Counted from the stretch's first letter, positions 4,267 through 27,710 are shown. The stretch: 64,000 bases of DNA from Bryobacterales bacterium (GCA_038229055.1 JBBROU010000007.1:2101-66100); one strand, 5' to 3'. Translations and numbers: made by a program. Notes: generated by a model from the letters alone, not told the origin.

Positions 4267-6855
4267 ATGATAATCCAGTTCCCGGCGCGGCCGCACGCCC
4301 GTTCCGCCGATTTGAGCCGCCCGATCGCACTCCTTCTCATCCTGACTTTAATAGGTTTGACGGTGCCGCCGTTGCCGGCGCGCAATCGGAAGGGCGATAA
4401 GTTTCTGGCGCAGGGCAAGGCAGCCGAAGCGCGCGAGGACTGGGACAAGGCGCTGCAGTTCGACGAGCAGGCGCTGAGCGAAGATCCATCCGATGCGGGG
4501 TACCAACTGGATATGCGGCGGATGCGGTTTCAGACCGCGGCGTATCACGTGAAGAACGGACAGAAGATCCGTACCAAGGGACAGCTTGCGCAGGCGCTGG
4601 CGGAGTTCGAGCGGGCGTATGCGATAGACCCTTCGTCCGATATCGCCGAGCAGGAGGTTCACCGCACCAAGGTGATGATCGATCGCGAAAAGAGGAAACC
4701 GGCGGCGCGGCCCGAGGGGCAGACCGACCAGGAAGCGGCGGAGGAGAGGGGCATGACGCCCGCGCAGGTAGCGAAAAAGGATGCCGACGCGCGCTTCGAA
4801 TCGCTGCTGCCGCTGCCCGAGTTGCGTCCGTTGACGGCGGCGCCGATCAATCTCAAGATGAACAATCAGAAGCCTCGGGTGTTATTCGAGACCGTGGGCA
4901 AGCTGGCGGGCATCAACGTTCTGTTCGATCCGGAGTACGAAGCGCAGAACCAGACCAAGCCGCAATCGATCGACTTCAACGGCTCGACGCTGGAGCAATC
5001 TCTGGACTATCTGGCGGTGGTGACGAAATCGTACTGGAAGGCGCTGTCGAGCAATACGATTTTCGTGACGCTGGACAATCCGACGAAGCTGCGCGAATAC
5101 CAGGAGCAGGTAGTCAAGACGTTTTATCTGTCGAATGTTACGACGCCGCAGGAATTGCAGGAAATCATCACGACGCTGCGGACGGTGGTCGAGATCACGA
5201 AGATCTTCAACTACACGTCGCAGAACGCGCTGGTGGTGCGGGCGGAAGCGGACCGGATGGCGCTGGCCGAGAAGATTATCGCCGACCTGGATAAACCGCG
5301 TTCGGAGGTGGTGATCGACGTGATGGTGATGGAGGTGAACAGCGTGCACACGCGCAACCTGGCGGCGGCGTTTGCTCCGCAAGGGATTAACTCGAACATC
5401 CTTTTCACGCCTCGGCAGAGTATCCAGACGCTGGCGAGTTCGCTGGGCACGGGGACAACGTCTGGAACCGGGACAGGAACGAATATCGGGAATACCGGAA
5501 TTGGAAGTGGAACTGGAATCGGCACGGGTAACGGCACCGGCACGGGCACCGGCAATACCACAACATCGAGCGCACCGATCCCGCTGGTGAATCTGAGGCA
5601 CATCAGCACGAAGGATTATTCCATCAGCAACGTGCCGGGCGGGCTGCTGGAGGCATTGCTGAATGACCGGGGCACGCGAGTTCTGCAATCTCCATCGCTT
5701 CGCGCAGTGGACAACATGAAGGCCGTACTGAAGATCGGCGATAAGGTACCGACGGCATCGGGCAGCTTTCAGCCGGGAATCGGCGGGGTGGGAATTAATC
5801 CGCTGGTGAATACGCAGTTTACGTTCCTGGACACGGGCGTAAATCTGGAGATCACGCCAAAGGTTCACGACAACGGCGAAGTTTCACTGCACGTTGACAT
5901 CAACATTTCGCAGGTAAAGGACAGGATCGACCTGGGCGGTATCTCGCAACCGATTATCGGCTCGCGCACGGCGACGCTGGACGTTCGCCTGAAGGATGGC
6001 CAGGCCAACTTGTTGGGCGGGCTGATTCAGAATCAGGACACCAAGACCGTGTCGGGCATTCCGGGACTGGCGAACATTCCAATTCTGCGGCGGCTGTTCA
6101 CCAGTGAGCTAGCCGAGAAAGACATGACCGAATTGCTGATCGTGCTGATCCCGCACATAGTGCGCGGGCCCGACTTGAGCGATCTGAACATGAAGGGCAT
6201 CGCGGCGGGCAACCAGACCACGGTGAAGCTGAGTTACGCACCGCGCAAGGCGGCGGCGGCACCGGAGCCGGGAACGACGGCGGAATTGCCGGGCGCGACG
6301 ATGGTTCCGGGCGCTCCGATTTCCGGACCTCCGGCAACAGCGCCGGCCGTAACTCCACCGGCACCCGGCATAACTCCACCGATTGCTGGGCCGCCGGCTA
6401 CGGCGCCCCCACAGGACAAGACGCCAACTACGCCATCGGGCAATGTGCGTGTATCTTTCGCGCCTGCGCAGATCGACACGCAGGTGAATTTCGCATCCAC
6501 GGTGAATGTGCAGGTGGATAATGCAACGGATCTGCAATCGGTGGAAGCGCAGTTGAAGTACGATCCGAAGGTTCTGCGGATCAACAGCATCTCGGCGGGC
6601 GATGTTCTGCAGCGAACGGGGCCGCCACTGGCGCCGTCACTGAATATTCTGAACGATTCGGGCGACGCTTCGTTCAGCATGGCGCGCGCTTCGGATCAAG
6701 GCGGCGTGACCGGGGGCGGCGGGCTGATCACGATTGTATTTCAGGCCATCGGGAAAGGCACGTCAACGATCTCATTCCAGAGCTTGACGCTGAAGAGCTC
6801 AGGAGGGCAAGCGATTGCCACGAGCATGCCGGCGCTCGTCGTCAACGTCAAATAA
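4267..6855 (+). CDS. secretin (GspD/PilQ family) with N-terminal TPR region and C-terminal cohesin-like domain
   Basis: The secretin core runs from VLQSPSLRAVDNMKAVLKIGDKVP to GIPGLANIPILRRLF and ELLIVLIPHIV. TPR-like repeats follow the signal/anchor. A Gly-Thr low-complexity insert lies at roughly nt 5445-5565. A Pro-rich linker leads to a cohesin-like block: VNVQVDNATDLQSVEAQLKYDPKVLRINSISAGDVL. Confidence 0.85.
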   Translation: MIIQFPARPHARSADLSRPIALLLILTLIGLTVPPLPARNRKGDKFLAQGKAAEAREDWDKALQFDEQALSEDPSDAGYQLDMRRMRFQTAAYHVKNGQKIRTKGQLAQALAEFERAYAIDPSSDIAEQEVHRTKVMIDREKRKPAARPEGQTDQEAAEERGMTPAQVAKKDADARFESLLPLPELRPLTAAPINLKMNNQKPRVLFETVGKLAGINVLFDPEYEAQNQTKPQSIDFNGSTLEQSLDYLAVVTKSYWKALSSNTIFVTLDNPTKLREYQEQVVKTFYLSNVTTPQELQEIITTLRTVVEITKIFNYTSQNALVVRAEADRMALAEKIIADLDKPRSEVVIDVMVMEVNSVHTRNLAAAFAPQGINSNILFTPRQSIQTLASSLGTGTTSGTGTGTNIGNTGIGSGTGIGTGNGTGTGTGNTTTSSAPIPLVNLRHISTKDYSISNVPGGLLEALLNDRGTRVLQSPSLRAVDNMKAVLKIGDKVPTASGSFQPGIGGVGINPLVNTQFTFLDTGVNLEITPKVHDNGEVSLHVDINISQVKDRIDLGGISQPIIGSRTATLDVRLKDGQANLLGGLIQNQDTKTVSGIPGLANIPILRRLFTSELAEKDMTELLIVLIPHIVRGPDLSDLNMKGIAAGNQTTVKLSYAPRKAAAAPEPGTTAELPGATMVPGAPISGPPATAPAVTPPAPGITPPIAGPPATAPPQDKTPTTPSGNVRVSFAPAQIDTQVNFASTVNVQVDNATDLQSVEAQLKYDPKVLRINSISAGDVLQRTGPPLAPSLNILNDSGDASFSMARASDQGGVTGGGGLITIVFQAIGKGTSTISFQSLTLKSSGGQAIATSMPALVVNVK

Positions 6856-6858
6856 GGT

Positions 6859-7341
6859 ATGAGGCACCTGGATAAACGGCGGGATACACGACGAGGGCTC
6901 ACGCTGGTCGAGCTGATTGTGGCGTTCACGATCATGCTGCTGCTGAGCACGATGGCGATCCCGCTGGCGCGGTCGCGCGTGCGCCGGAACAAGGAGCACG
7001 ATCTGCGGATCGCGCTGCGCGAGGTCCGCACGGCGATCGACAAATATAAAGACATGGCCGACACGGGCAAGCTGGGCATCCAGAAGCAGGACGCGAATGG
7101 TTATCCCGAGAAGCTGGAATTGCTGGTGGAAGGCGTCAAGGGATCGGGGACGAATGCCGACACCAAATTGAAATTCCTGCGGCGCATTCCGAAGGATCCG
7201 TTCACCAATTCGACCGACTGGGGCAAGCGCAGCATGCAGGACGATCCGAAATCCGCGGGCTGGGGCGGGCAGAATGTGTTCGACGTTTATACCAAGACAT
7301 CCGAAAAGGCATCCGATGGAACAGCTTACTCGGACTGGTAG
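6859..7341 (+). CDS. type II secretion / type IV pilin-like pseudopilin (GspG-like)
   Basis: Prepilin-type N-terminal motif RRGLTLVELIVAFTIMLLLS. C-terminus …VFDVYTKTSEKASDGTAYSDW is paralogous to the next gene. Confidence 0.8.
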   Translation: MRHLDKRRDTRRGLTLVELIVAFTIMLLLSTMAIPLARSRVRRNKEHDLRIALREVRTAIDKYKDMADTGKLGIQKQDANGYPEKLELLVEGVKGSGTNADTKLKFLRRIPKDPFTNSTDWGKRSMQDDPKSAGWGGQNVFDVYTKTSEKASDGTAYSDW

Positions 7342-7351
7342 GCGCGGGGCG

Positions 7352-7753
7352 GTGTCGCGCCGCAGGTTCGTGAGCGGCGGGTTCACGCTGATCGAGCTGA
7401 TGATCGTGATGGCGATCATCGTGATCATTATTTCGATCTCGGTGCCGTATTATCAGAAGTCGATTCAGCGGGCCAAGGAGAGCGTACTGCGCAATAACCT
7501 CTTCACGATGCGCAACGTGATCGACGAATATAGCTACGACAAGCAGAAGGCGCCGCAGACGCTGGATGACCTGGTAAAAGAAGGGTATCTGCGGGAGATA
7601 CCGCGCGACCCGATCACGGGGAATAATACGTCGTGGAAGATCATCATGGAAGATCCGGGACAGAGTTTGAATCAGACTGAGCCGGGGATTTTCGATGTGC
7701 GGAGCGGGTCGGATAAGACGAGTCTGGACGGGACGGCGTTCGCGGAGTGGTGA
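7352..7753 (+). CDS. type II secretion pseudopilin (GspG-like), tandem paralog
   Basis: Motif GGFTLIELMIVMAIIVIIISI. C-terminus IFDVRSGSDKTSLDGTAFAEW. I chose the GTG at 7352, just after the upstream stop. ATG 7316 and the ORF-track start 7274 would overlap the previous gene. Confidence 0.75.
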   Translation: MSRRRFVSGGFTLIELMIVMAIIVIIISISVPYYQKSIQRAKESVLRNNLFTMRNVIDEYSYDKQKAPQTLDDLVKEGYLREIPRDPITGNNTSWKIIMEDPGQSLNQTEPGIFDVRSGSDKTSLDGTAFAEW

Positions 7754-7785
7754 GGAGGGGAGAAGAAGCGCGATAAAATGCGGGT

Positions 7786-9888
7786 ATGCGCCAGACCCTG
7801 TCTGTCCGATATGGATTCCTGCGTCTTTTTTCCGGTTTAGCTTCTTTCCTTTTTGCCCATTCCTTACTTCCGGCCCAATCCTGCGCGCCTACGGCTACCA
7901 ACCTTCTGGTTCATTCCGAAGGCCTCGCGGAACGCGTGGGCGACGTTCTGCTCACGTGTTCGGGAACGCCGGGCGCGACTTTCACCGGGAACCTCAACCT
8001 ATTTCTGAACACCAATGTGACCAACCGGCTGTCGGGGAACACGCCCGACGTCAGCCTCACGTTCGACTCCGGCACCGGCGCGGTGCTGTCGACCCAATTG
8101 AGCGGCGCGAACAACGTCACATTCAATGGCCTGTCGTTTACCATTCCCGCGTCAGGCGCGGCGCGGATTCACATCAGCAATATCCGAGCGAATGTGAATG
8201 CGCTGGGCGGGCAGCCGGTGATCGCGAATCTGGCGAGCACCAATCTGCTGTTTAGCGGGAATGCGATCACGCTGGCAACCCCACAGGCAAGCTTACTGTT
8301 GAGCGAAGCCAGCACGCTGATTCGTTGCTACGGCTCTCCGCTGCCGGCGGCATTCGATCTCGCCAGCCTGTTCAGCGCGGGAACGCGGTTCTCATCGACG
8401 CGCATCACGGAAGGGTTTGCGACGGCGTTTCAGGTGAAGGACGCGATGTCCGATACGGGGACGCGGATCGTGGTGAATTATGCGTCGCTGCCGCCGGGCG
8501 CGCGGCTATTCGTTCCGGATGAAGTAGCGGGATCGAGCGCGCTGCAGGCTACGGCGGGCGGCGACTTGGGGATGGCGCAGTCGGGAGGTTCGTATGCGCC
8601 GTCGACGTCGGGATCCCTGCTGCTGGCGCGCGTGAACGGGGCCGACGCGAATGGCACGGGAGGCGCTCCGGTTTACGCACCGGGGCCGGTGGGCGGCCCG
8701 GCGGCGAATTTCAATACGGCGACGGAGATCCCCGTGGCGAACGGAGCGGCGTCGGTTACGTACGAAGTTGTGGACGCGAATCCGTCGGTACAGGAGAGCG
8801 CGCAGTTTCCGACGTTCATTGGAATTCCGGCGGGTTCGCCGGCGGCTACGTCAAGCGAAACGGTTCTGATCGGGCCGGTTTCGACGGTCGGAATGGCGAC
8901 GGCGGGCGACCCGGTGCCGCGATTCGCGGCGGTGCCGCCGGCCTCGGATTGTTCATTCCTGACCGACTGCAACGCGACTTACTTTCCGCAGTTGACGGCG
9001 GATGTGACCCCGCTGCAGTTCGCGGCGGCCGCGGGCGGGGCGCCGCAGACACGGTATGTGCGGATGGGCAACGCGGGGGCGGGGGTGCTGGACTGGAAGG
9101 CGACGGTGACGTACCAATCGGGCGCGGATTGGATCACGGTCAATCCACCGGAAGGGCAGAACAGCGTCACGATCCGGGTGGACGCGCATCCCGAGAGGCT
9201 GGGCGCGGGGACGTACCAGGCAACCCTGCTGATCGATGGGGGACCGCTTGCCGGGAGCCGGACGGTGCCGATCACGCTGACCGTGGGACCGGCGGTTGTG
9301 GTTACGCCGGCGGTAACGGTGAGTTCAGTGGTGAATGCGGCGAGCTTCCAGGCGGGGCCGGTGGCGGCGGGATCGCTGGCGACGATTCAGGGCACCAATC
9401 TTGGGGGCAAATCGGTTACGGCCGCGTTCGACGGAATTGCGGCGGCGGTGCTCTATTCCGGGGGGCAGCAGATCAATTTGCTGGTGCCGTCTCAGATTGC
9501 GGGGAAGACAAGTTCGCAGTTGGTGGTTACGGCCGACGGGGTGAGCAGCGCGCCATTCACAGTGACACTAGCGCCAACGGCGCCGGGCATCTTCCAGCCG
9601 GGCATTTTGAATCAGGACAACTCGGTGAACGCCGCGGGAATGGGGGCGGCGGGCGGATCGATCATTCAGATCTACGCGACCGGGGTGAATTCATCGGCGG
9701 GCGCGGTAACGGTGACGGTCCACGACCAGGCGGGGCTAGTTCCTTTGTATGCGGGGCCGGCTCCGGGCATTCCGGGACTCGAGCAGGTGAACGTGCTGGT
9801 TCCCGGATATCTGCCGGCCGTGATGACGCACGTGAAGATCTGCGTGGGCACGGTGTGCAGCGCGCCGGCTCCGATTCAGTTGCGCTGA
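7786..9888 (+). CDS. large secreted protein with BACON-like domain and TIGR03437-type (Solibacter C-terminal) domain
   Basis: Signal peptide LFSGLASFLFAHSLLPAQS. BACON-like block GVLDWKATVTYQSGADWITVNPPEGQNSVTIRVD. The C-terminal block VVNAASFQAGPVAAGSLATIQGTNLG…QINLLVPSQIAGKTSSQLVV…APGIFQ…IQIYATG…PLYAGPAPGIPGLEQVNVLVP matches my recollection of TIGR03437. Confidence 0.7.
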   Translation: MRQTLSVRYGFLRLFSGLASFLFAHSLLPAQSCAPTATNLLVHSEGLAERVGDVLLTCSGTPGATFTGNLNLFLNTNVTNRLSGNTPDVSLTFDSGTGAVLSTQLSGANNVTFNGLSFTIPASGAARIHISNIRANVNALGGQPVIANLASTNLLFSGNAITLATPQASLLLSEASTLIRCYGSPLPAAFDLASLFSAGTRFSSTRITEGFATAFQVKDAMSDTGTRIVVNYASLPPGARLFVPDEVAGSSALQATAGGDLGMAQSGGSYAPSTSGSLLLARVNGADANGTGGAPVYAPGPVGGPAANFNTATEIPVANGAASVTYEVVDANPSVQESAQFPTFIGIPAGSPAATSSETVLIGPVSTVGMATAGDPVPRFAAVPPASDCSFLTDCNATYFPQLTADVTPLQFAAAAGGAPQTRYVRMGNAGAGVLDWKATVTYQSGADWITVNPPEGQNSVTIRVDAHPERLGAGTYQATLLIDGGPLAGSRTVPITLTVGPAVVVTPAVTVSSVVNAASFQAGPVAAGSLATIQGTNLGGKSVTAAFDGIAAAVLYSGGQQINLLVPSQIAGKTSSQLVVTADGVSSAPFTVTLAPTAPGIFQPGILNQDNSVNAAGMGAAGGSIIQIYATGVNSSAGAVTVTVHDQAGLVPLYAGPAPGIPGLEQVNVLVPGYLPAVMTHVKICVGTVCSAPAPIQLR

Positions 9889-13990: not shown

Positions 13991-14521
13991 TCAGCGGGCA
14001 TTTCTGTTGTGAGCCGCCGATTTGGCGCCCAGATTCCGTTGCAGAATTTCGCGAACCTGGAGAAGATCGTCGGGCGCAAGGGCCCGCTTCGGGATCAGGT
14101 TGAAGATATTTGACTGGGGATAGAGCAGGAACAGGTGTTTCGATTCTGTGTATCTTGCAAACGCACTCCAGTTGAAATTGCTGCTGCCATTCGGACCGGC
14201 GAACACTATCCCCGAGTCGGAGATGACCGTCTCCGTTTGAGGAAGCTTTGCAAAATCGCGTTTGAACGCGAACCTGGCCAACAGTCGCAGACGTAATGCC
14301 AAACCTAGTCCGATAAGGATCGGAATGGCCGATTGCGCATATTGTGCCCCCGGAAGGAACATCTGCATCATTCCGCCGGCGATCAAGAATACGCCGAATC
14401 CTTGAATCAACCTGGACAATATCCCCTCGTGGCGAGTCTGGGCTTCAAGAAGGTCTTTCTCAGTGAGACTGTAAATAGCTCGAACCTCAGGGCCGGTTTG
14501 ACTTGGCATCGCAGAATTCAT
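13991..14521 (-). CDS. YcxB-like (bPH-type) membrane protein
   Basis: Two central TM helices (GFGVFLIAGGMMQMF, AIPILIGLGLALRL) are followed by …NWSAFARYTESKHLFLLYPQSNIFNLIPKRAL, typical of YcxB-like domains. Confidence 0.55.
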   Translation of the reverse strand: MNSAMPSQTGPEVRAIYSLTEKDLLEAQTRHEGILSRLIQGFGVFLIAGGMMQMFLPGAQYAQSAIPILIGLGLALRLRLLARFAFKRDFAKLPQTETVISDSGIVFAGPNGSSNFNWSAFARYTESKHLFLLYPQSNIFNLIPKRALAPDDLLQVREILQRNLGAKSAAHNRNAR

Positions 14522-14580
14522 AACGGTGTATTGTACGCCGGAGCGGTAAAGTGTGATTCAATCTGTCGAGGGCCGGCAAC

Positions 14581-16191
14581 ATGTCTCCAACAGGCAAGCT
14601 CCGCATTGCACGCGCGGCATGGATCGCATCCGTGATGATGGCGGCCGGCAGCGGCTCGGCGATCTATACAATGGCGCAGAGCAACCCCGTGGGGATCGTC
14701 ATCCTGGATCAATTAGGACCGGGTTACCGGGCCTACTGGGTTCTTGGAATCTCTTTACTGCTGTCGTTCGCGATCTCGATTTTCTTGCGGCATCGGATTC
14801 TCATAGCGCGGCAACATCGAAACGAACTAACAGCCGAACTGTTGCTGGAAAACCTGCGCGAGGACAAACCGGTAGCCTGTAAAGAGTTCTTCGTCTATCT
14901 GCGGTCATTCGAAACAACGGGCCACCTGAAGCCGCCCTTCTTTTTTACGATGGCGGTACTCGGACGGCTGCACACCAATGAGCTGGAGTCTTTTCTGGCG
15001 TTATCGCTCGAAAAGAAGGGGCCGCTGGTTGCTTTGGGGCTACCCGGAGAGAGTGTCGGGGCTGCACGCATCCACGTGGACGATACGACTTGGAAGGACG
15101 ATATTCAGCGGCTACTGACCCACGCGAGCGGCTTGCTGGTGGTGCCGTCGGCGCACGAGGGGACTAAGTGGGAGATTGAATTACTACAGAAAGACGACTT
15201 ACTCAAGAAAGCGGTTTTCATCATGCCGCCGAAGACTCGACAGTTCGACTGGCGAGTGAGGTGGGAGCAAGCAAGTCAGTCGTTGAGAGAATTCTCGATC
15301 ACCCTGCCTGAGTACAACGAACGGGGCCTGCTGTTCAGACTTGATGAACAAGGCCAGGTAGCCGACGCGCGCATGTTCTCGCTGATGTTTCGCCGCTCCA
15401 TTCGTAAGTCTATCGAAGCGTTGTTAAAGGGCGCGCGCGAGAATCGTTCCGGCTCAGATGCGATCCGGAAGGCAAACCGCCGCGCTCGCATGGTTTGGTT
15501 CTATGGCACATGGGTTAGCTCCTTCGGTTCACTGATCGCGACTCCGATCATGCTCTGGTTTGCCATCCACGCCTTTCTTTCCGGGCGTGTTCCGCGAGCC
15601 GTGGATACGTCACCTCCGTGGTCTACGTTTACCGATCGCTATGACAGTGCCGAAGAAGTGAACAGCGCTCAAGGGCTCCTCGGCAAGGAAATCTTTTTTA
15701 GAAGCCATCGTTGGTTGTCCGAGAGCGAGATCGATCAATTGGCCAAGCAGGGGCTGTTGCGTGTCGATGAAATGGACCGAGAGCTTTATCAATTCGGTTT
15801 TGGCGAGATGCTCTCGCTTGCGCCAAATGAACACGTATGCGCCGCTTTGGCGGAAGGCAGGGCCTCTGAATTGGACCGTATCAGAACGCTGGTGACGATG
15901 CCGAGTCATGACGTGAACCTTTGGATGAGTGCGCGGGAGAAAGCGGCCAGGGCCGCGGCTAGAGACTTGCCTTTGGTCGCAGGGATCGGAGAGCCTGGAG
16001 CCGATCTAAAGGAAGCTATCTCAGCGGTCCTCGGCAGGCAAGGCGGCATTGATTTGGAGGACCTGTTGACGGCCGGACGCAAGTTGACTGAAGAGGAGAC
16101 TTGCCGGCTTGGGATTGCGGGCGCAACTGCCGTCTACCGGCTGCGCGAGCCCTATCGGGCGCAATTATCCACGGTGTTGGCGAGCCGGTAA
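14581..16191 (+). CDS. polytopic membrane protein with central Rossmannoid (TIR/NDT-like?) module; function unknown
   Basis: ATG start. TM helices near aa 10-30, 50-70 and ~310-345. The soluble block at aa ~100-220 shows a beta/alpha periodicity: FFVYLRSFE … PLVALGLPGE … ARIHVDD … GLLVVPSAHEGTKWEIELL … AVFIMPP. No family recognised with certainty. Confidence 0.6.
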   Translation: MSPTGKLRIARAAWIASVMMAAGSGSAIYTMAQSNPVGIVILDQLGPGYRAYWVLGISLLLSFAISIFLRHRILIARQHRNELTAELLLENLREDKPVACKEFFVYLRSFETTGHLKPPFFFTMAVLGRLHTNELESFLALSLEKKGPLVALGLPGESVGAARIHVDDTTWKDDIQRLLTHASGLLVVPSAHEGTKWEIELLQKDDLLKKAVFIMPPKTRQFDWRVRWEQASQSLREFSITLPEYNERGLLFRLDEQGQVADARMFSLMFRRSIRKSIEALLKGARENRSGSDAIRKANRRARMVWFYGTWVSSFGSLIATPIMLWFAIHAFLSGRVPRAVDTSPPWSTFTDRYDSAEEVNSAQGLLGKEIFFRSHRWLSESEIDQLAKQGLLRVDEMDRELYQFGFGEMLSLAPNEHVCAALAEGRASELDRIRTLVTMPSHDVNLWMSAREKAARAAARDLPLVAGIGEPGADLKEAISAVLGRQGGIDLEDLLTAGRKLTEEETCRLGIAGATAVYRLREPYRAQLSTVLASR

Positions 16192-16192
16192 T

Positions 16193-17302
16193 TCAGCCGT
16201 CATACCCGAGGGCTTCGGCTTTCGCGAAATCGGCTTGGGCACCGGCGCGATCGTTTAACTTCTGCTTGGCCCGAGCCCGGTATTGATGGGCATACGAGTC
16301 CTCCGGATCGATTCGGATGGCTTGGTTGAAATCGGCTAACGCTTCGGGAAACATCTTGAGCTCGTGATGCGAGTGACCGCGCCAGAGATGCGCGGTGAGG
16401 ATATCGGGCTGCTTGTCAATAGCCGCGGTGAAATCGAGAATAGCCCCGCGGTGTTGGCCATGGCGATTGGCTATGAATCCGCGTGCGACGTATGCCTCGG
16501 CGAGGTCCTGGTTGATTCGCAGGGCGTGATCGTAGTCTTCCAGCGCGCGGCGCTCATCATCCATTTGGGCGTAACATTCCCCGCGTTGGAAATAGGCGAA
16601 TGCGTCTTCGGGTTCGATTTCAATGGCGCGATTGAAATCCTTCAAGGCGTCCTTCTTCCGGCCGGCGGAGAGCAACAGCAGGGCTCGCTCGATCCACGCC
16701 GGGAAGAAGTTCCGATTACTCTGAATTGCGGCGTCGAAACTCTGGAGAGCCGAATCGAGGTGCCCGAGGTTACCGTGTGCAACGCCAAGGTTGACCAGCG
16801 CGAAGAGATCGCCCGGATTCTTCGCAATGAAACGATTGAGCGGGACAATGGCAGCCGAGGGGCGGGTGTGGGCGGCGTGGTCGCGCATGGCTGAGGCCAG
16901 CTTTTCGTAGCCGTCGGGCTGAAACAGGTCAGTCCATTCGCGATCCGACAAAGTTTTCGGAATTACACACTCTTCGAGTCGGACCGGCACGAGAAGAATC
17001 GAACTTTTGGCTTTCTTTTTCGCCTCCGCCAGAGCCAGCTCGATCTCTTTGGTGACGTAGCCCGCCTTCGAATTGACGCGACGCGAGAGGCAGATGAGGA
17101 CGGCATCCGAACCTTTGATCGCCTCCTCAATGAAGTCTTCCCAACGCTGTCCGTGCGGAATGGCCTCAATGTCCAGCCAGGGCCAGAATCCATCCTCCCG
17201 CAATCGGTCATGCAACTCTTTGATTACCTTTTTGTCCTTCGACCGATGACAAAGAAAAACTTTCAATCCATCCGATTGGTAAGAATCGGCTTGGCGGGTC
17301 AT
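16193..17302 (-). CDS. TIR domain protein with C-terminal TPR repeats
   Basis: TIR block: KVFLCHRSKDKKVIKELHDRLREDGFWPWLD…GQRWEDFIEEAIKGSDAVLICLS…AGYVTKEIELA. The candidate catalytic Glu is at aa ~86. About 6 TPR units follow (…AYFQRGECYAQMDDERRALEDYDHALRINQDLAEAYVARG…). I chose the ATG at 17302 because it forms an ATGA overlap with the upstream stop. The 71 codons further upstream are Arg/Pro-rich and lie inside the upstream gene. Confidence 0.85.
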   Translation of the reverse strand: MTRQADSYQSDGLKVFLCHRSKDKKVIKELHDRLREDGFWPWLDIEAIPHGQRWEDFIEEAIKGSDAVLICLSRRVNSKAGYVTKEIELALAEAKKKAKSSILLVPVRLEECVIPKTLSDREWTDLFQPDGYEKLASAMRDHAAHTRPSAAIVPLNRFIAKNPGDLFALVNLGVAHGNLGHLDSALQSFDAAIQSNRNFFPAWIERALLLLSAGRKKDALKDFNRAIEIEPEDAFAYFQRGECYAQMDDERRALEDYDHALRINQDLAEAYVARGFIANRHGQHRGAILDFTAAIDKQPDILTAHLWRGHSHHELKMFPEALADFNQAIRIDPEDSYAHQYRARAKQKLNDRAGAQADFAKAEALGYDG

Positions 17303-18627
17303 GGGCGGATTAGAGCTTCGAGTTGAACGACGATCCGGAGGAGTTCGCCGCGGCGCGGTTCTTCGAACAGGGCGGCGGCGGTTCGGCAATCGGCGAGCGT
17401 GGTTTCCAGCTTCCAGGCGGATGGACCTTCGACGGCTATTTGGCTGGCAAGTTCCTGGGCTTTCTCGACGTCGCCGGCGTCGAATGCCGAACCGAGGAGG
17501 GTCGGGTTCAGCCATTCGTCGCTCGACTTACGGGTGCGGGCGCGCTCGCAGGCGATCAGGGTGACAGCGCCGGAGACACGAGCCTTGTCATCGTCGCCTT
17601 TCCGGTTGCGCGTGCGATAGAGCCGGGCCAGGTTGGAAGACGGGTAGTAATCATTGAGATCGAGCTTCATGCCGTTCTCATATTCGGCGATGGCGCGGTC
17701 GAGGTCGACGGGATTTTTGGAGGCGCTCCACCTTTTCTTATAGCGGCCGCCAAGAAGGCCGCGGCGTTCGGATGTGTCTCCGGCGCTCGCGATGAGCTCG
17801 CGGAGGGCCCCGATTGCGGTCTCGTGATCGCCCGATTTGGATAAGGCGAGGGCACGCTGCTCTTTGATGAGGGACGAGTTGCGGAGGTCATCGGGCAGAC
17901 TGTCGATGAACTGCAAGGTGGTGGTCCAATCGGTGCAGTCGCGGAGGGTGTAGAGAAGCTCGACGGCGACGGCTTTCTGAATGGGGCCGCCGGTGAAGTA
18001 GCGTTTCTGGAGATCGAGCGCGCGGATGCGGCATTCATCTCCGGTGGCAGCGCGAGCGGCGATGATTTCGGCTTGAAACTGAGAGAGCTCTTCGAGACTT
18101 TTCTTGAACGAAGCGCCGCGAAGAACCTCGAATTCAGGGTACTTGGGGAAGACCTGATAGAACGGAGAATCGCCCTCGCGCATGATGGGGATGGCGGCGA
18201 CCATGATGTTTATGATCTGCGCGGCAACTTCGTCGGAGATGGATTCGGTGGGCAGGGGATAGCGAATCTGGCGCATCTGGTCGACGTCGAAGAGCGGCTT
18301 GGACCAATCGGCGGCGGTCAGAATGCAGCCCCTTTGCTGAGCGGCGTGTCGAATGCCAACTTCGTAGTAGACATTGCCGTTGGGGATGGAAAGGTCGGCG
18401 AGCACCAGGTCCGAGATGGCGAGGCGCTCAATCATTTCAGTGATGATGAGCGCGCCGATATCTTCGTTGGCGCGCACGGGTTCGTAGCCGGCCTTAGCAA
18501 TGGCGGGACGGAGGGCGGCCTCCCAGAGACGATCGAAGTTGACCTTATCGGGCGCCGCACTGCCGGGCGGCGCGGAAGTCGCCTTCGTGCTGTACGGCAT
18601 GATCATGAAGCAGATTGGTTGTGGCAT
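17299..18627 (-). CDS. nucleoside 2-deoxyribosyltransferase-like (TIR-like Rossmannoid) domain fused to DUF4071 / ASK(MAP3K)-type TPR region
   Basis: N-terminus CFMIMPYS…FDRLWEAALRPAIAKAGYEPVRANED…ISDLVLADLSIPNGNVYYEVGIRHA fits the bacterial NDT-like pattern (MPF…D.viaDlt..N.NV.YE.G.aha). C-terminus …RRGLLGGRYKKRW…LDRAIAEYENGMKLDLNDYYPSSNLARLY matches my recollection of Pfam PF13281 (DUF4071 / TRAFs-binding). Confidence 0.7.
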   Translation of the reverse strand: MPQPICFMIMPYSTKATSAPPGSAAPDKVNFDRLWEAALRPAIAKAGYEPVRANEDIGALIITEMIERLAISDLVLADLSIPNGNVYYEVGIRHAAQQRGCILTAADWSKPLFDVDQMRQIRYPLPTESISDEVAAQIINIMVAAIPIMREGDSPFYQVFPKYPEFEVLRGASFKKSLEELSQFQAEIIAARAATGDECRIRALDLQKRYFTGGPIQKAVAVELLYTLRDCTDWTTTLQFIDSLPDDLRNSSLIKEQRALALSKSGDHETAIGALRELIASAGDTSERRGLLGGRYKKRWSASKNPVDLDRAIAEYENGMKLDLNDYYPSSNLARLYRTRNRKGDDDKARVSGAVTLIACERARTRKSSDEWLNPTLLGSAFDAGDVEKAQELASQIAVEGPSAWKLETTLADCRTAAALFEEPRRGELLRIVVQLEALIRP

Positions 18628-25481: not shown

Positions 25482-27710
25482 TCATGGTCCAGCAAACGTG
25501 GCGTCGTGAGTTACGGTGAGTGTGCTTCCCGACAGGACCTCCAACACATGAGTGTTCCACGTCTGGCTCGAGAGTGTGATGGGATCGGGGTTCATGTTGC
25601 CGCTTACAACTCCAAAGACCGGTCCCGTGCCCTCCTTTTTGTAGACATTCACGGCCGCAGGAACGTCGAAATTCAGGTGCACACGCGTTTCAAAATCGAT
25701 GGAACTGTAATAGTGGGTGAAGGGTGCGACGACATGACCCTGACTGGGGGCATCATCGGATGTGGCTGTTTTCAGATCGGCAGAGATGGTGTAGGCATCG
25801 TCGTGATAACGCGGGTCGGTATGCAGCCTGTCGATGGTGAAGTCGGGAAAGTTGGAGATGTGCTGAATGTCGTAAAGCGTATGGGGCGCTGGGAAGACGG
25901 GGGTGGACCCCGGACCCTGCCATCGCTTGAAGTAGCCCTGCATCCATTGCACGAAGGTGTACATCTTTGTAGTGCCAGCCTCGCGCACGGTGAACTTCAT
26001 GTTGATGGACTTCTTGATTCCTCCATCAATATAACCGTTGTCGACGACCGTGAAACTGATCAGGTTGTTTTTGACTTCGAGGCTGGGCGAGGCGGCAGGA
26101 TCGGTAGTCCCGGCCGGTGGCGACGCGGGATCCGGAAAGGCGATGACCCGGTATTTCATGGCGATCGCTGAAGAGAAGGAGGCTAACGGAATTCTTGCCA
26201 AGTCCCGCCACCATTCCAAGGGCATAGCGAAGGTGGCCCCTCCACTGCCGTCCAATTTCAGGGAGGTTTTTCCATCGGTCCAAGAGCTGTAAACCTTTAG
26301 ATTCTGGCGGTCACGCGCGTTCTTGGTCGCGTCCCACGCTCCGGAGATTCCGGGGCCTCCGGCGGGCGTGGAGCCGTCGCGGGTCACCTGCAGATCAAAG
26401 AACTGATTCGGGGGGCCGTCTGTGATGGTGAAGGTAAGGATGGGAAATCCGGAAGGAGTATTGCCCGCCTTATCGACGACTACTGTGATGCTGCCGCTGT
26501 TGGGCACCACCTTCATCTTGCGCAGCTTCAGATTGACCGGATCGGTTTTATCGGTCGGGTTGACGGTGGCGTGGCCGTCGTTCCCATCGGCTAAACCTTC
26601 CTTGAAGGCGCTGACGTGATAGGTTACGCCCTCTTTCAGGTTGACGATTTTGTAGTTTCCGCTGCCATCGGTGGTGACTGCCGCGACACCGGCTTCGGCG
26701 ACCTTTACCGTGGCCCCGGGGATGGGATTGGTGGTGGCGGCGTCGGTCACGGTACCCGCGATGAAGAGTGGGCGCATTTTGAGCGTGGCCGGGACAACGT
26801 CGTTAGGACGGAATTTGGGATCCAGGCCGGCATCGGCGTGTACGAAGCCCTGGTCGATGGTGGATTTCAGATCGTGGTGACCGGACTCGACGAACTTGAA
26901 CTCGAACTCGCCATTACCGCCGCTTTTCACAGAGCCGGATGCCTGTCCATCCAAGGTGACGGTAGCGCCGGAGACGCCGTTTTTGGAGTCATCAGGGTTG
27001 GTGGAATCGACCGCGCGGCCGCGGATGATGCCCCGCGGTTTGACGGTGATTGGGACGTCGGTGACTTGGTTACTGATTACTTTGATCGGGCCGGCGTTGC
27101 CAGGAAGGTTTCCGTCGGCGCTTTCTACTCGAATTGTATAGTCGTCCGCGGGCGGCAGGTTGTCGAAGACGAGCTGACCGTCATCACCAGCTTTGGAGGT
27201 TTGCCCCTGGGAACCGCCTAGGGTGACGGCGGCTTGAGCGAGCGGCGGGGTATCGGTTCCGTACTCGTACGTGACGATCACGTGGATTTTGCCCGGGACA
27301 GGCGTCGTGCCACCGGGCGGAGACGTAGGAGCGGGGCCGCCACCCGGCGTCTCGGTGCTCGCGCCGCAGTGCGAGGCGGGTTCGCCGACATTGCCCTGGC
27401 CCGCATTGGCATCGGCATCCGCGGCGGCCCCGGTTAGGGCAGCGGGAGTGGTATCCGGAGTTGGAGTAGGTGTCGGAGTTGGGGTTGGCGTCGGCGATGG
27501 GGTAGGAGTAGGCGTAGGAGTTGGTGCTGGAGTCGGGGTTGGAGTTGGAGTAGGAGTAGGAGTAGGAGTTGGAGTAGGAGTAGGAGTAGGAGTAGGAGTA
27601 GGGGTTGGAGTAGGAGTAGGGGTTGGAGTAGGAGTAGGGGTTGGAGTAGGAGTAGGAGTAGGAGTCGGCGTGGGTGTTGGAGTCGGCGTGGGTGTGGGAG
27701 TTGGAGGCAT
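25482..27710 (-). CDS. signal-less 742-aa protein: N-terminal (Pro-Thr)n tract, three CarboxypepD_reg-like beta-sandwich domains, unassigned C-terminal ~300 aa
   Basis: Starts MPP(TP)n for ~85 aa. Repeated blocks of the type GATVTLDG…[17 protein letters not shown] and [10 protein letters not shown]…[23 protein letters not shown] are carboxypeptidase-regulatory-like. I could not assign the C-terminal region (…[17 protein letters not shown]…[13 protein letters not shown]…). Confidence 0.65.
27456..27707 (-). repeat. in-frame hexanucleotide tandem repeat (plus strand GGNGTN; encodes Pro-Thr)
   Basis: Directly visible. It is near-perfect (GGAGTAGGAGTAGGGGTT…) from ~27551 to ~27665 and degenerate at both flanks. 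It encodes about 40 PT dipeptides at the N-terminus of the 742-aa protein. Confidence 0.95.

Follow-up and report, generated by a model that had tools for sequence, protein, structure and literature searches.

A TIR-TPR gene overlapping a ThsI-like gene in a Bryobacterales bacterium resembles an unusual variant of type VIII Thoeris

To date, the described systems that come closest to the gene pair considered here are those of type VIII Thoeris. The pair lies on the minus strand at positions 16193-18627 of a 64,000-nucleotide stretch of DNA from a Bryobacterales bacterium (GCA_038229055.1 JBBROU010000007.1:2101-66100), referred to as the window, and consists of a gene for a TIR domain followed by tetratricopeptide repeats (TPRs) and of a second gene, called the core gene in what follows, whose product resembles the type VIII protein ThsI. 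According to the preprint of Yirmiya et al. (December 2025; bioRxiv 10.64898/2025.12.03.692087), type VIII Thoeris combines a TIR gene with ThsI, a "CMP hydrolase and TPR" protein, and the systems from Yersinia enterocolitica and from a Pseudomonas metagenomic scaffold protect Escherichia coli, with T2 and T6 being targeted. The validated TIR proteins are of the ThsB type (cluster 2734565194) and about 130 aa long. Type VIII TIRs alone make canonical cyclic ADP-ribose (cADPR), solely upon infection, and exogenous cADPR arrests the growth of, or is toxic to, the cells that carry the system. The TPR region of ThsI, predicted by Aravind, is the presumed receptor of the ligand. In the same work, the type was found to be abundant in Pseudomonadota, enrichment beside known defence genes having been the criterion for its discovery.

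A related pair, BcTir/BcTpr from Bacillus cereus, has been reported in another preprint (Liu et al. 2023; bioRxiv 10.1101/2023.05.26.542521), in which both proteins are required for defence. BcTpr begins with a MilB-like glycosidase and ends in a TPR region, and its mutations N82A and E86A abolish both NAD+ depletion and defence. In this case NADase activity and the making of a cADPR isomer are ascribed to BcTpr and not to BcTir, which lowers the level of the isomer; both proteins form a complex, and BcTir naturally lacks the catalytic Glu, showing K37 instead. Effects on the homeostasis of reactive oxygen species (ROS) were also reported. Burroughs and Aravind (2020; J Bacteriol 202:e00365-20) are cited in both preprints as having predicted systems made of a TIR protein and a DRHyd-TPR-S core. 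As far as their 78 operons are represented in the re-tabulation given by Liu et al., the core is solo in 29/78, accompanied by TIR in 28/78 and by patatin in 4, and the other partners given there include YspA, SLOG, LSDAT and SLATT.

The original prediction for this locus, made from the DNA sequence, took the two genes for a candidate uncharacterised defence system. This part has been overtaken by the literature, in which the pairing appears as a prediction in 2020, as the experimentally tested BcTir/BcTpr in 2023 and under the name type VIII Thoeris in 2025, and the pair is an unusual variant of an already described, named system, not a new class. The upstream core gene (17299-18627, minus strand) encodes a ThsI-like protein of 442 aa, recognized from its open reading frame (ORF) and its Pfam matches, and the downstream gene (16193-17302, minus strand) encodes a protein of 369 aa that begins with MTRQADSY and in which a TIR_2 domain is fused to five or six canonical TPRs. 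As originally predicted, both ORFs are present on the minus strand and overlap by the four nucleotides ATGA (17299-17302, minus strand), read directly from the sequence, which hold the TGA stop of the upstream gene and the ATG of the downstream one. This overlap indicates a single operon, though such overlaps are not rare in the window: inspection of the ORF coordinates shows 4-nt overlaps to be frequent between its co-directional genes. An alternative in-frame downstream ORF begins at 17515, with an Arg/Pro-rich extension lying inside the upstream gene; the form found in public gene calls is the one of 369 aa. Neither gene is a chance ORF, because both are long, match profiles strongly and have homologs numbering more than 1,700. 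A scan of the locus for promoters and terminators yielded signals at or below the shuffle expectation, and its composition profile exhibits just a mild dip in GC.

The core protein was compared with ThsI by means of the Pseudomonas plasmid pA7J1, where a gene for a TRAFs-binding domain is followed, 7 bp on, by a small TIR gene whose product matches PF08937. Because this TIR shares 76% identity with the TIR of the validated Pseudomonas type VIII system, the core gene next to it is a good proxy for ThsI. The alignment of the window's core protein with this proxy covers essentially its full length, at 24% identity and E=9e-21; the two proteins agree in Pfam architecture and have in common the motifs CFxIM, DLVxADxSxxNxNxxYExGIRHA, GLxGxxYKxxW and DYYxxxN. 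To judge from these sequences, the core protein is a distant but clear member of the ThsI/BcTpr family whose active site appears to be intact. The locus also resembles type VIII Thoeris in being a two-gene operon of a TIR and a CMP-hydrolase/NDT-like-plus-TPR protein (NDT, nucleoside 2-deoxyribosyltransferase), and in the order of the genes, which in the window and in pA7J1 is core first and TIR second.

The N-terminal part of the core protein (aa 1 to ~175; 18103-18627, minus strand) is a putative Rossmannoid domain of the NDT/DNPH1/MilB type, predicted to be a catalytic N-glycosidase and, as such, the effector of the pair. It holds a putative active-site loop, N83-G84-N85-V86-Y87-Y88-E89 (18361-18381, minus strand), delimited by conservation and by its equivalence to BcTpr. 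Conservation was scored on 47 diverse members of the core family, from which a family profile was also built. Among them, N83, N85 and E89 are at least 90% conserved, within the motif IPNGNVYYE; R52, Y88, G91, R93, E287, G290, N332 and W372 are invariant, and K297 and Y316 nearly so. In the alignment made with a profile of the N-terminal domain (E=0.0016), the family sequence ADxSxxNxNVYYExG is paired with AEVTQPSLGVGYELG of DNPH1, E89 falling on the Glu of the DNPH1 motif GYELG; core residues N85 and E89 correspond to N82 and E86 of BcTpr. Going by the published description of BcTpr, the two loci are alike in joining a TIR gene to a gene for a (here predicted) N-glycosidase with TPRs and in keeping the catalytic Asn and Glu.

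The remainder of the core protein is formed by TPRs, and five of the conserved residues (E287, G290, K297, Y316 and N332) are located in its TPR-S segment, W372 lying further C-terminal in the TPR half. The TPR-S segment (PF20308, E=5.7e-19; aa 237-336; 17620-17919, minus strand) includes the sequence GLLGGRYKKRW and is the predicted receptor for an NAD+-derived signal. This Pfam entry presumably derives from the 2020 work of Burroughs and Aravind. A longer match (aa 88-415) is to MAP3K_TRAF_bd, PF13281, formerly DUF4071 (E=6.2e-11), and the family profile finds human ASK1 among the PDB structures (8qgy, E=4.1e-17; 5ulm, E=2.5e-16), which bears out the DUF4071/ASK-type TPR module named in the original prediction. 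The AlphaFold2 (AF2) model of the TPR half, with a predicted local distance difference test score (pLDDT) of 85-95, superposes on ASK1 5ulm_A in Foldseek with a root-mean-square deviation of 4.2 A over 270 columns. The TPR half of the core is therefore homologous to the regulatory region of ASK1/MAP3K5. A weak profile match extends to the N-terminal domain of ASK1, near the loop ADxxVxxxS...YxxGxR, in which this weak alignment places a His (FYHLG) where the core family has its catalytic Glu (YYEVG). ASK1 is a kinase scaffold, whereas the bacterial core is a predicted enzyme plus sensor; no kinase or PH domain was found by Pfam in the core protein, which ends after the TPRs. A PqsB match obtained with the single sequence in a PDB search was spurious.

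According to these data, the roles assigned to the two halves of the core protein in the original prediction, in which the NDT-like domain was a sensor and the protein carried no effector, are likely reversed, because the published evidence makes the glycosidase domain catalytic and required (BcTpr N82A/E86A) and the TPR region the presumed receptor; the corresponding residues N85 and E89 are conserved here. On the basis of this literature and of residue conservation, the signal is predicted to be sensed by TPR-S, and the glycosidase domain to act as the effector. The general logic of a producer and a receiver, as in Thoeris, stands, since core homologs adjoin TIR genes and TIR-dependent signalling has been described by Yirmiya et al. 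(2025) and Liu et al. (2023). The arrangement also recalls type I Thoeris (ThsA, with SIR2 and SLOG domains, and ThsB), where a TIR producer is found beside a ligand-activated effector that degrades NAD+ or nucleotides. However, the receptor is a SLOG domain in type I and TPR in the window pair, and the effector is SIR2 there and an NDT-superfamily glycosidase here; neither the core nor the TIR-TPR protein has a Pfam match to the effector domains of types I and II (SIR2-SLOG or Macro/TM).

The partner of the core protein carries its TIR_2 domain at aa 15-134 (16901-17260, minus strand; Pfam E=2.5e-26), followed by a canonical TPR array at aa ~168-366 (16205-16801, minus strand), which is a candidate module for sensing infection or binding a partner. 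The array is matched by TPR_1 (1e-31), TPR_2 (3.6e-29), TPR_17 and TPR_8, each with 4-5 scoring repeats, and Pfam finds no TPR-S in this protein. An expectation of about six TPRs behind the TIR domain thus agrees with the five to six observed, five of them scoring. The Glu residue noted at the position used by NAD+-cleaving TIRs was also confirmed: E86 (codon 17045-17047), in GYVTKEIE, aligns with the conserved Glu of Cat1, to whose TIR the window TIR aligns at E=1.3e-4, and of every Thoeris or core-adjacent TIR compared. Its nearest relatives among the core-adjacent TIRs are those of loci L015 (E=4e-13) and L082 (E=9e-7). By its sequence the TIR is assigned to the TIR_2 clade, fused to a TPR array.

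The presence of E86 bears on a different division of labour, that proposed for B. cereus, in which the core would, through its N-terminal glycosidase domain, both make the cADPR isomer and deplete NAD+, and the TIR would be a non-catalytic or regulatory partner that restrains or tunes it in a complex. The findings of Liu et al. on BcTpr (its NADase activity, its cADPR isomer and its complex with BcTir) speak for this possibility, as does the conservation of N85 and E89, and it would explain why many cores of the clade have no TIR neighbour. Nevertheless, BcTir consists of a TIR domain only and has K37 in place of the Glu, whereas the window TIR keeps E86, which argues for a TIR that would be active, and carries a TPR array. 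In addition, the type VIII TIRs of Yirmiya et al. make cADPR alone and exogenous cADPR triggers toxicity; the model of Liu et al., itself an unreviewed preprint, conflicts with these results. We therefore consider this division of labour improbable for the window pair.

Several results weigh against the assignment of the pair to a type VIII-like system or set it apart from the validated ones. With regard to the TIR, the window protein is a 369-aa TIR_2-TPR fusion, whereas the validated type VIII proteins are short and of the ThsB type, and BLASTP detected no match between the window TIR and the validated type VIII TIR. Pfam found TIR_2 and TIR, and no ThsB_TIR, in the TIR-TPR protein; the PADLOC models for ThsB match the window TIR weakly (E=0.004-0.015), and its best matches in PADLOC, NCBIfam and PDB are bSEFIR, pAgo-associated, SAVED-fused, retron and Cat1 TIRs. 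Several TIRs of these kinds act as NAD+-degrading effectors and not as producers of a signal. With regard to the core, its identity to the ThsI proxy is low, as given above, the protein has no match in PADLOC v2 (2023) or NCBIfam (2026), and the fold of its N-terminal domain is not confirmed by the AF2 model, which has a pLDDT below 50 in this domain (the alignment of 31 sequences, 72-82% identical, was too shallow). Because this model is of low confidence, the assignment of the fold leans on profiles. Those profiles match DNPH1/Rcl N-glycosidases in PDB at E=0.0016-0.02, and the Pfam family Nuc_deoxyrib_tr (PF05014) matched 4/28 members of the core family weakly (best E 0.018). The NDT-like character originally attributed to this domain is thus backed marginally by DNPH1 and weakly by PF05014, and it is less strongly supported than the identity of the TPR half.

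The exact pair is not conserved either. In the data searched, it was found on the contig of the window only: no second TIR-TPR and core pair appeared in 5.8 billion proteins, 19 genome loci, 47 metagenome loci and four TIR-TPR contexts. The TIR-TPR protein has one close homolog, P0272 (55% identity), and neither this nor the three more distant TIR-TPR fusions adjoin a core gene. Around the core gene, in 42 genome and metagenome loci of the same clade (those with a candidate neighbour ORF within 1.3 kb of the core), 16 patatins were counted against 3 TIR_2 genes, the rest being housekeeping genes. Patatin adjoins the core at L001-L003, and at L004-L006 the core is solo amid flagellar or ribosome-associated genes. 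Finally, the window host belongs to the Acidobacteriota, and the locus lies outside any recognisable defence island: when 49 window proteins were screened with PADLOC, the TIR-TPR protein and a single mad2 protein were the sole matches.

These observations lead to the question of whether the two genes function together. They could be two autonomous modules placed side by side, the TIR-TPR protein being a self-contained sensor-NADase, the core acting solo or with a distal partner, and the overlap reflecting compact packing, as the frequent 4-nt overlaps in the window would allow. In line with this, TIR-TPR homologs are solo at L031, L032 and L087 and have a ThsB_TIR gene as neighbour at L085 and L086, close homologs of the core are solo in housekeeping contexts or beside patatin, and the relatives of the window TIR listed above (bSEFIR, pAgo-associated, SAVED-fused and Cat1) fit as well. 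The G+C content at third codon positions (GC3) also hints at a separate, later arrival of the TIR-TPR gene (0.67) relative to the core gene (0.75); the values are 0.66 for the convergent gene of a 536-aa protein described below, 0.60 for a YcxB-like gene and 0.738 +/- 0.039 for 32 other genes of the window. These values hint mildly that the block 13994-17302 (YcxB-like, 536-aa and TIR-TPR genes) was acquired after the core and came to abut it. On the other hand, the core family recurrently adjoins TIR genes across bacteria and the tested systems need both components, other TIRs or TIR-sensor fusions are found beside the core within the same clade, and the stop/start overlap makes a single transcription unit of the pair. 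Independent action of the two proteins is, in our judgement, rather unlikely.

The recurrence of TIR genes beside the core is best seen at the level of the family, which comprises 1,777 homologs in a word-index search and 7,698 representatives at 50% clustering; the best 120 of the 1,777, at 72-82% identity, come from metagenome-assembled genomes of Bryobacterales, Solibacteraceae and Terriglobia. Homologs are carried by 60 plasmid records, in which they adjoin TIR genes in Pseudomonas, Acinetobacter, Vibrio and Lacticaseibacillus, and DUF4231 (SLATT) plus TIR or patatin in Rhizobium. Within the Acidobacteriota clade, the neighbour of the ThsI-like gene varies among patatin, a TIR-only protein (L015, TIR_2 3e-26), a TIR-FGE-sulfatase, TIR-TPR and none; a TIR gene is also convergent with the core at L054. 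The architecture of the core and the range of its variable partners are those of the DRHyd-TPR-S systems, and the link between core and TIR is solid for the family although the window pair is a singleton.

The varying neighbourhoods also bear on whether the module has an immune role. It may instead belong to stress or physiological signalling, in which a TPR scaffold of the ASK kind and a domain that processes nucleotides would react to nucleotide or redox signals from within the cell. Conservation of the core is unusually high, more than 100 clusters showing 72-82% identity, and both in the window and in several relatives it lies amid housekeeping genes, with no recognisable defence island. 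Genes near the pair in the window encode an acyltransferase, a Gfo/Idh/MocA oxidoreductase, a YcxB-like protein, a large phosphoesterase and Lgt, and the association with a defence island that PADLOC might have revealed was not borne out, there being one mad2 match among the 48 other proteins. The homology to ASK1, a stress kinase of eukaryotes, in its regulatory region and the effects on ROS homeostasis reported by Liu et al. point in the same direction. Against this, members of the family have been shown experimentally to protect against phages, the genomic position of the gene differs between close relatives, the partners are of conflict type (patatin, TIR, FGE-sulfatase, SLATT/DUF4231), and some relatives have integrases, patatin, DUF4062 or toxin-antitoxin genes as neighbours, the last also on some of the 60 plasmids. 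A purely physiological role is therefore very unlikely.

Weighing all of the above, we give slightly better than even confidence to the reading of the pair as a Thoeris type VIII-like anti-phage signalling module. In such a module, the two genes, which overlap, would be co-transcribed and probably translationally coupled. The TIR-TPR protein would be both input and producer, its TPR array sensing an infection cue or controlling assembly, and by analogy with Thoeris TIRs its TIR domain, which has kept Glu86, would turn NAD+ into a messenger of the cyclic ADP-ribose type. The isomer need not be canonical cADPR, as the validated type VIII TIRs that make it belong to a different TIR clade. If the ThsI-like protein acts as the literature suggests, the messenger would be bound by its TPR-S/ASK-type TPR region, and this binding would release the NDT/DNPH1/MilB-like N-glycosidase, whose Asn85 and Glu89 are conserved. 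The released enzyme may then hydrolyse NAD+ or nucleotides and thereby starve the phage.

A broader proposal joins several of these elements, and we regard it as possible but doubtful: in Acidobacteriota of the Bryobacterales type, the DRHyd-TPR-S protein would be a conserved signalling hub with interchangeable modules for input or output (TIR-TPR in the window, TIR-TM-FGE-sulfatase, TIR-only or patatin at other loci, and maybe the 536-aa membrane protein), the version with TIR-TPR would be an undescribed Thoeris subtype in which a TIR_2-clade enzyme has its own TPR pathogen sensor and maybe a messenger other than cADPR, and the gene at 14581-16191 would encode a new membrane effector or third component. 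This last gene (plus strand) encodes an orphan membrane protein of 536 aa and converges on the TIR-TPR gene, with 1 bp between the two stop codons. The protein has no match in Pfam, PADLOC or NCBIfam, and 14 homologs were found in 5.8 billion proteins, with the invariant motifs VYLRxFETTG, PPFFF, NELESFLAL and PSxHxGTxWEI. One of them, P0404 (51% identity), is encoded directly downstream of a TPR-S core in L033 and L034, with patatin, DUF4062, DUF3987 and integrases nearby, and three others are not beside a core gene; the 536-aa protein is thus a possible, loosely linked third gene. Its AF2 model has a pLDDT of 79, and the sole match in a profile search was that of T4 lysozyme to the C-terminal domain (E=0.12). 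A TIR- or NDT-like nature, considered for its motifs FVYLRSF and LLVVPS..G.KWEIE, was rejected, the best Foldseek match having an E of 0.9 and the putative NDT 4mcj one of about 6.

Some further features were observed in the window and in the loci compared. In the window, the mad2 match (MADS system) had E=4.8e-12 and concerned one of the 48 proteins other than TIR-TPR, and a 742-aa ORF at 25482-27710 (minus strand) starts with about 40 Pro-Thr dipeptides (PTPTPT...). Within the core family, P0173 (694 aa) holds an extra C-terminal LSDAT_prok SLOG domain (E=1.3e-66); this protein and about 13 other representatives of ~590-630 aa have an added C-terminal region of about 170-250 aa, and when nine more of the long members were scanned, Pfam had no match for this extension. 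On Rhizobium leguminosarum plasmid p_2 (L088, 3998-5334 and 5621-9250), the plasmid homolog closest to the core, at 46% identity, is split into two annotated ORFs, probably through a frameshift; DUF4231, DUF3380, patatin and a further DUF4071 gene come after it.

Among the loci of the clade, L082:628-1959 encodes a fusion of TIR_2, a transmembrane segment and FGE-sulfatase (TIR 1e-22, FGE-sulfatase 5e-40) beside patatin and a core 79% identical to that of the window, and L050 gave the same tblastn pattern. At L054, two minus-strand genes (6772-7872 and 6180-6836) are convergent with the core, one for the TIR-containing protein and, upstream of it, one whose product shows, by eye, pentapeptide-like repeats and an alpha/beta domain; the arrangement resembles one more cluster of conflict type next to the core. 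A gene for a protein of ~180-240 aa with the motif AGRRVD...RFPL, which has no Pfam match, recurs beside the core-associated patatin (L082:1988-2710, minus; L013:7587-8144, plus; L029:7613-8146, plus) and may be one more member of the patatin-type clusters. L005 and L006 have a solo core with 82% identity to that of the window, and capsid-like phage genes at a distance of ~3.7 kb from it (at ~8.9-10.1 kb), where Phage_capsid_4 was matched in both loci and Phage_cement_2 weakly in L006.

This locus is unusual in that the partner is a TIR_2-TPR protein, the host belongs to the Acidobacteriota, the pairing is a singleton and partners are swapped within the clade. If functional, the pair would extend the axis from TIR to TPR-S (ThsI) to the Acidobacteriota and to a TIR_2-TPR architecture outside the validated type VIII systems. 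As the window TIR carries an obvious candidate sensor domain, it bears on what the TIR senses and on which cADPR isomer is made. The exchange of partners in the clade (patatin, TIR-FGE-sulfatase or none) bears in turn on whether the ligand of the core is made by the TIR, as in the work of Yirmiya et al., or by the core itself, as in that of Liu et al. Lastly, the core protein is a further data point for a bacterial origin of the regulatory region of ASK1.

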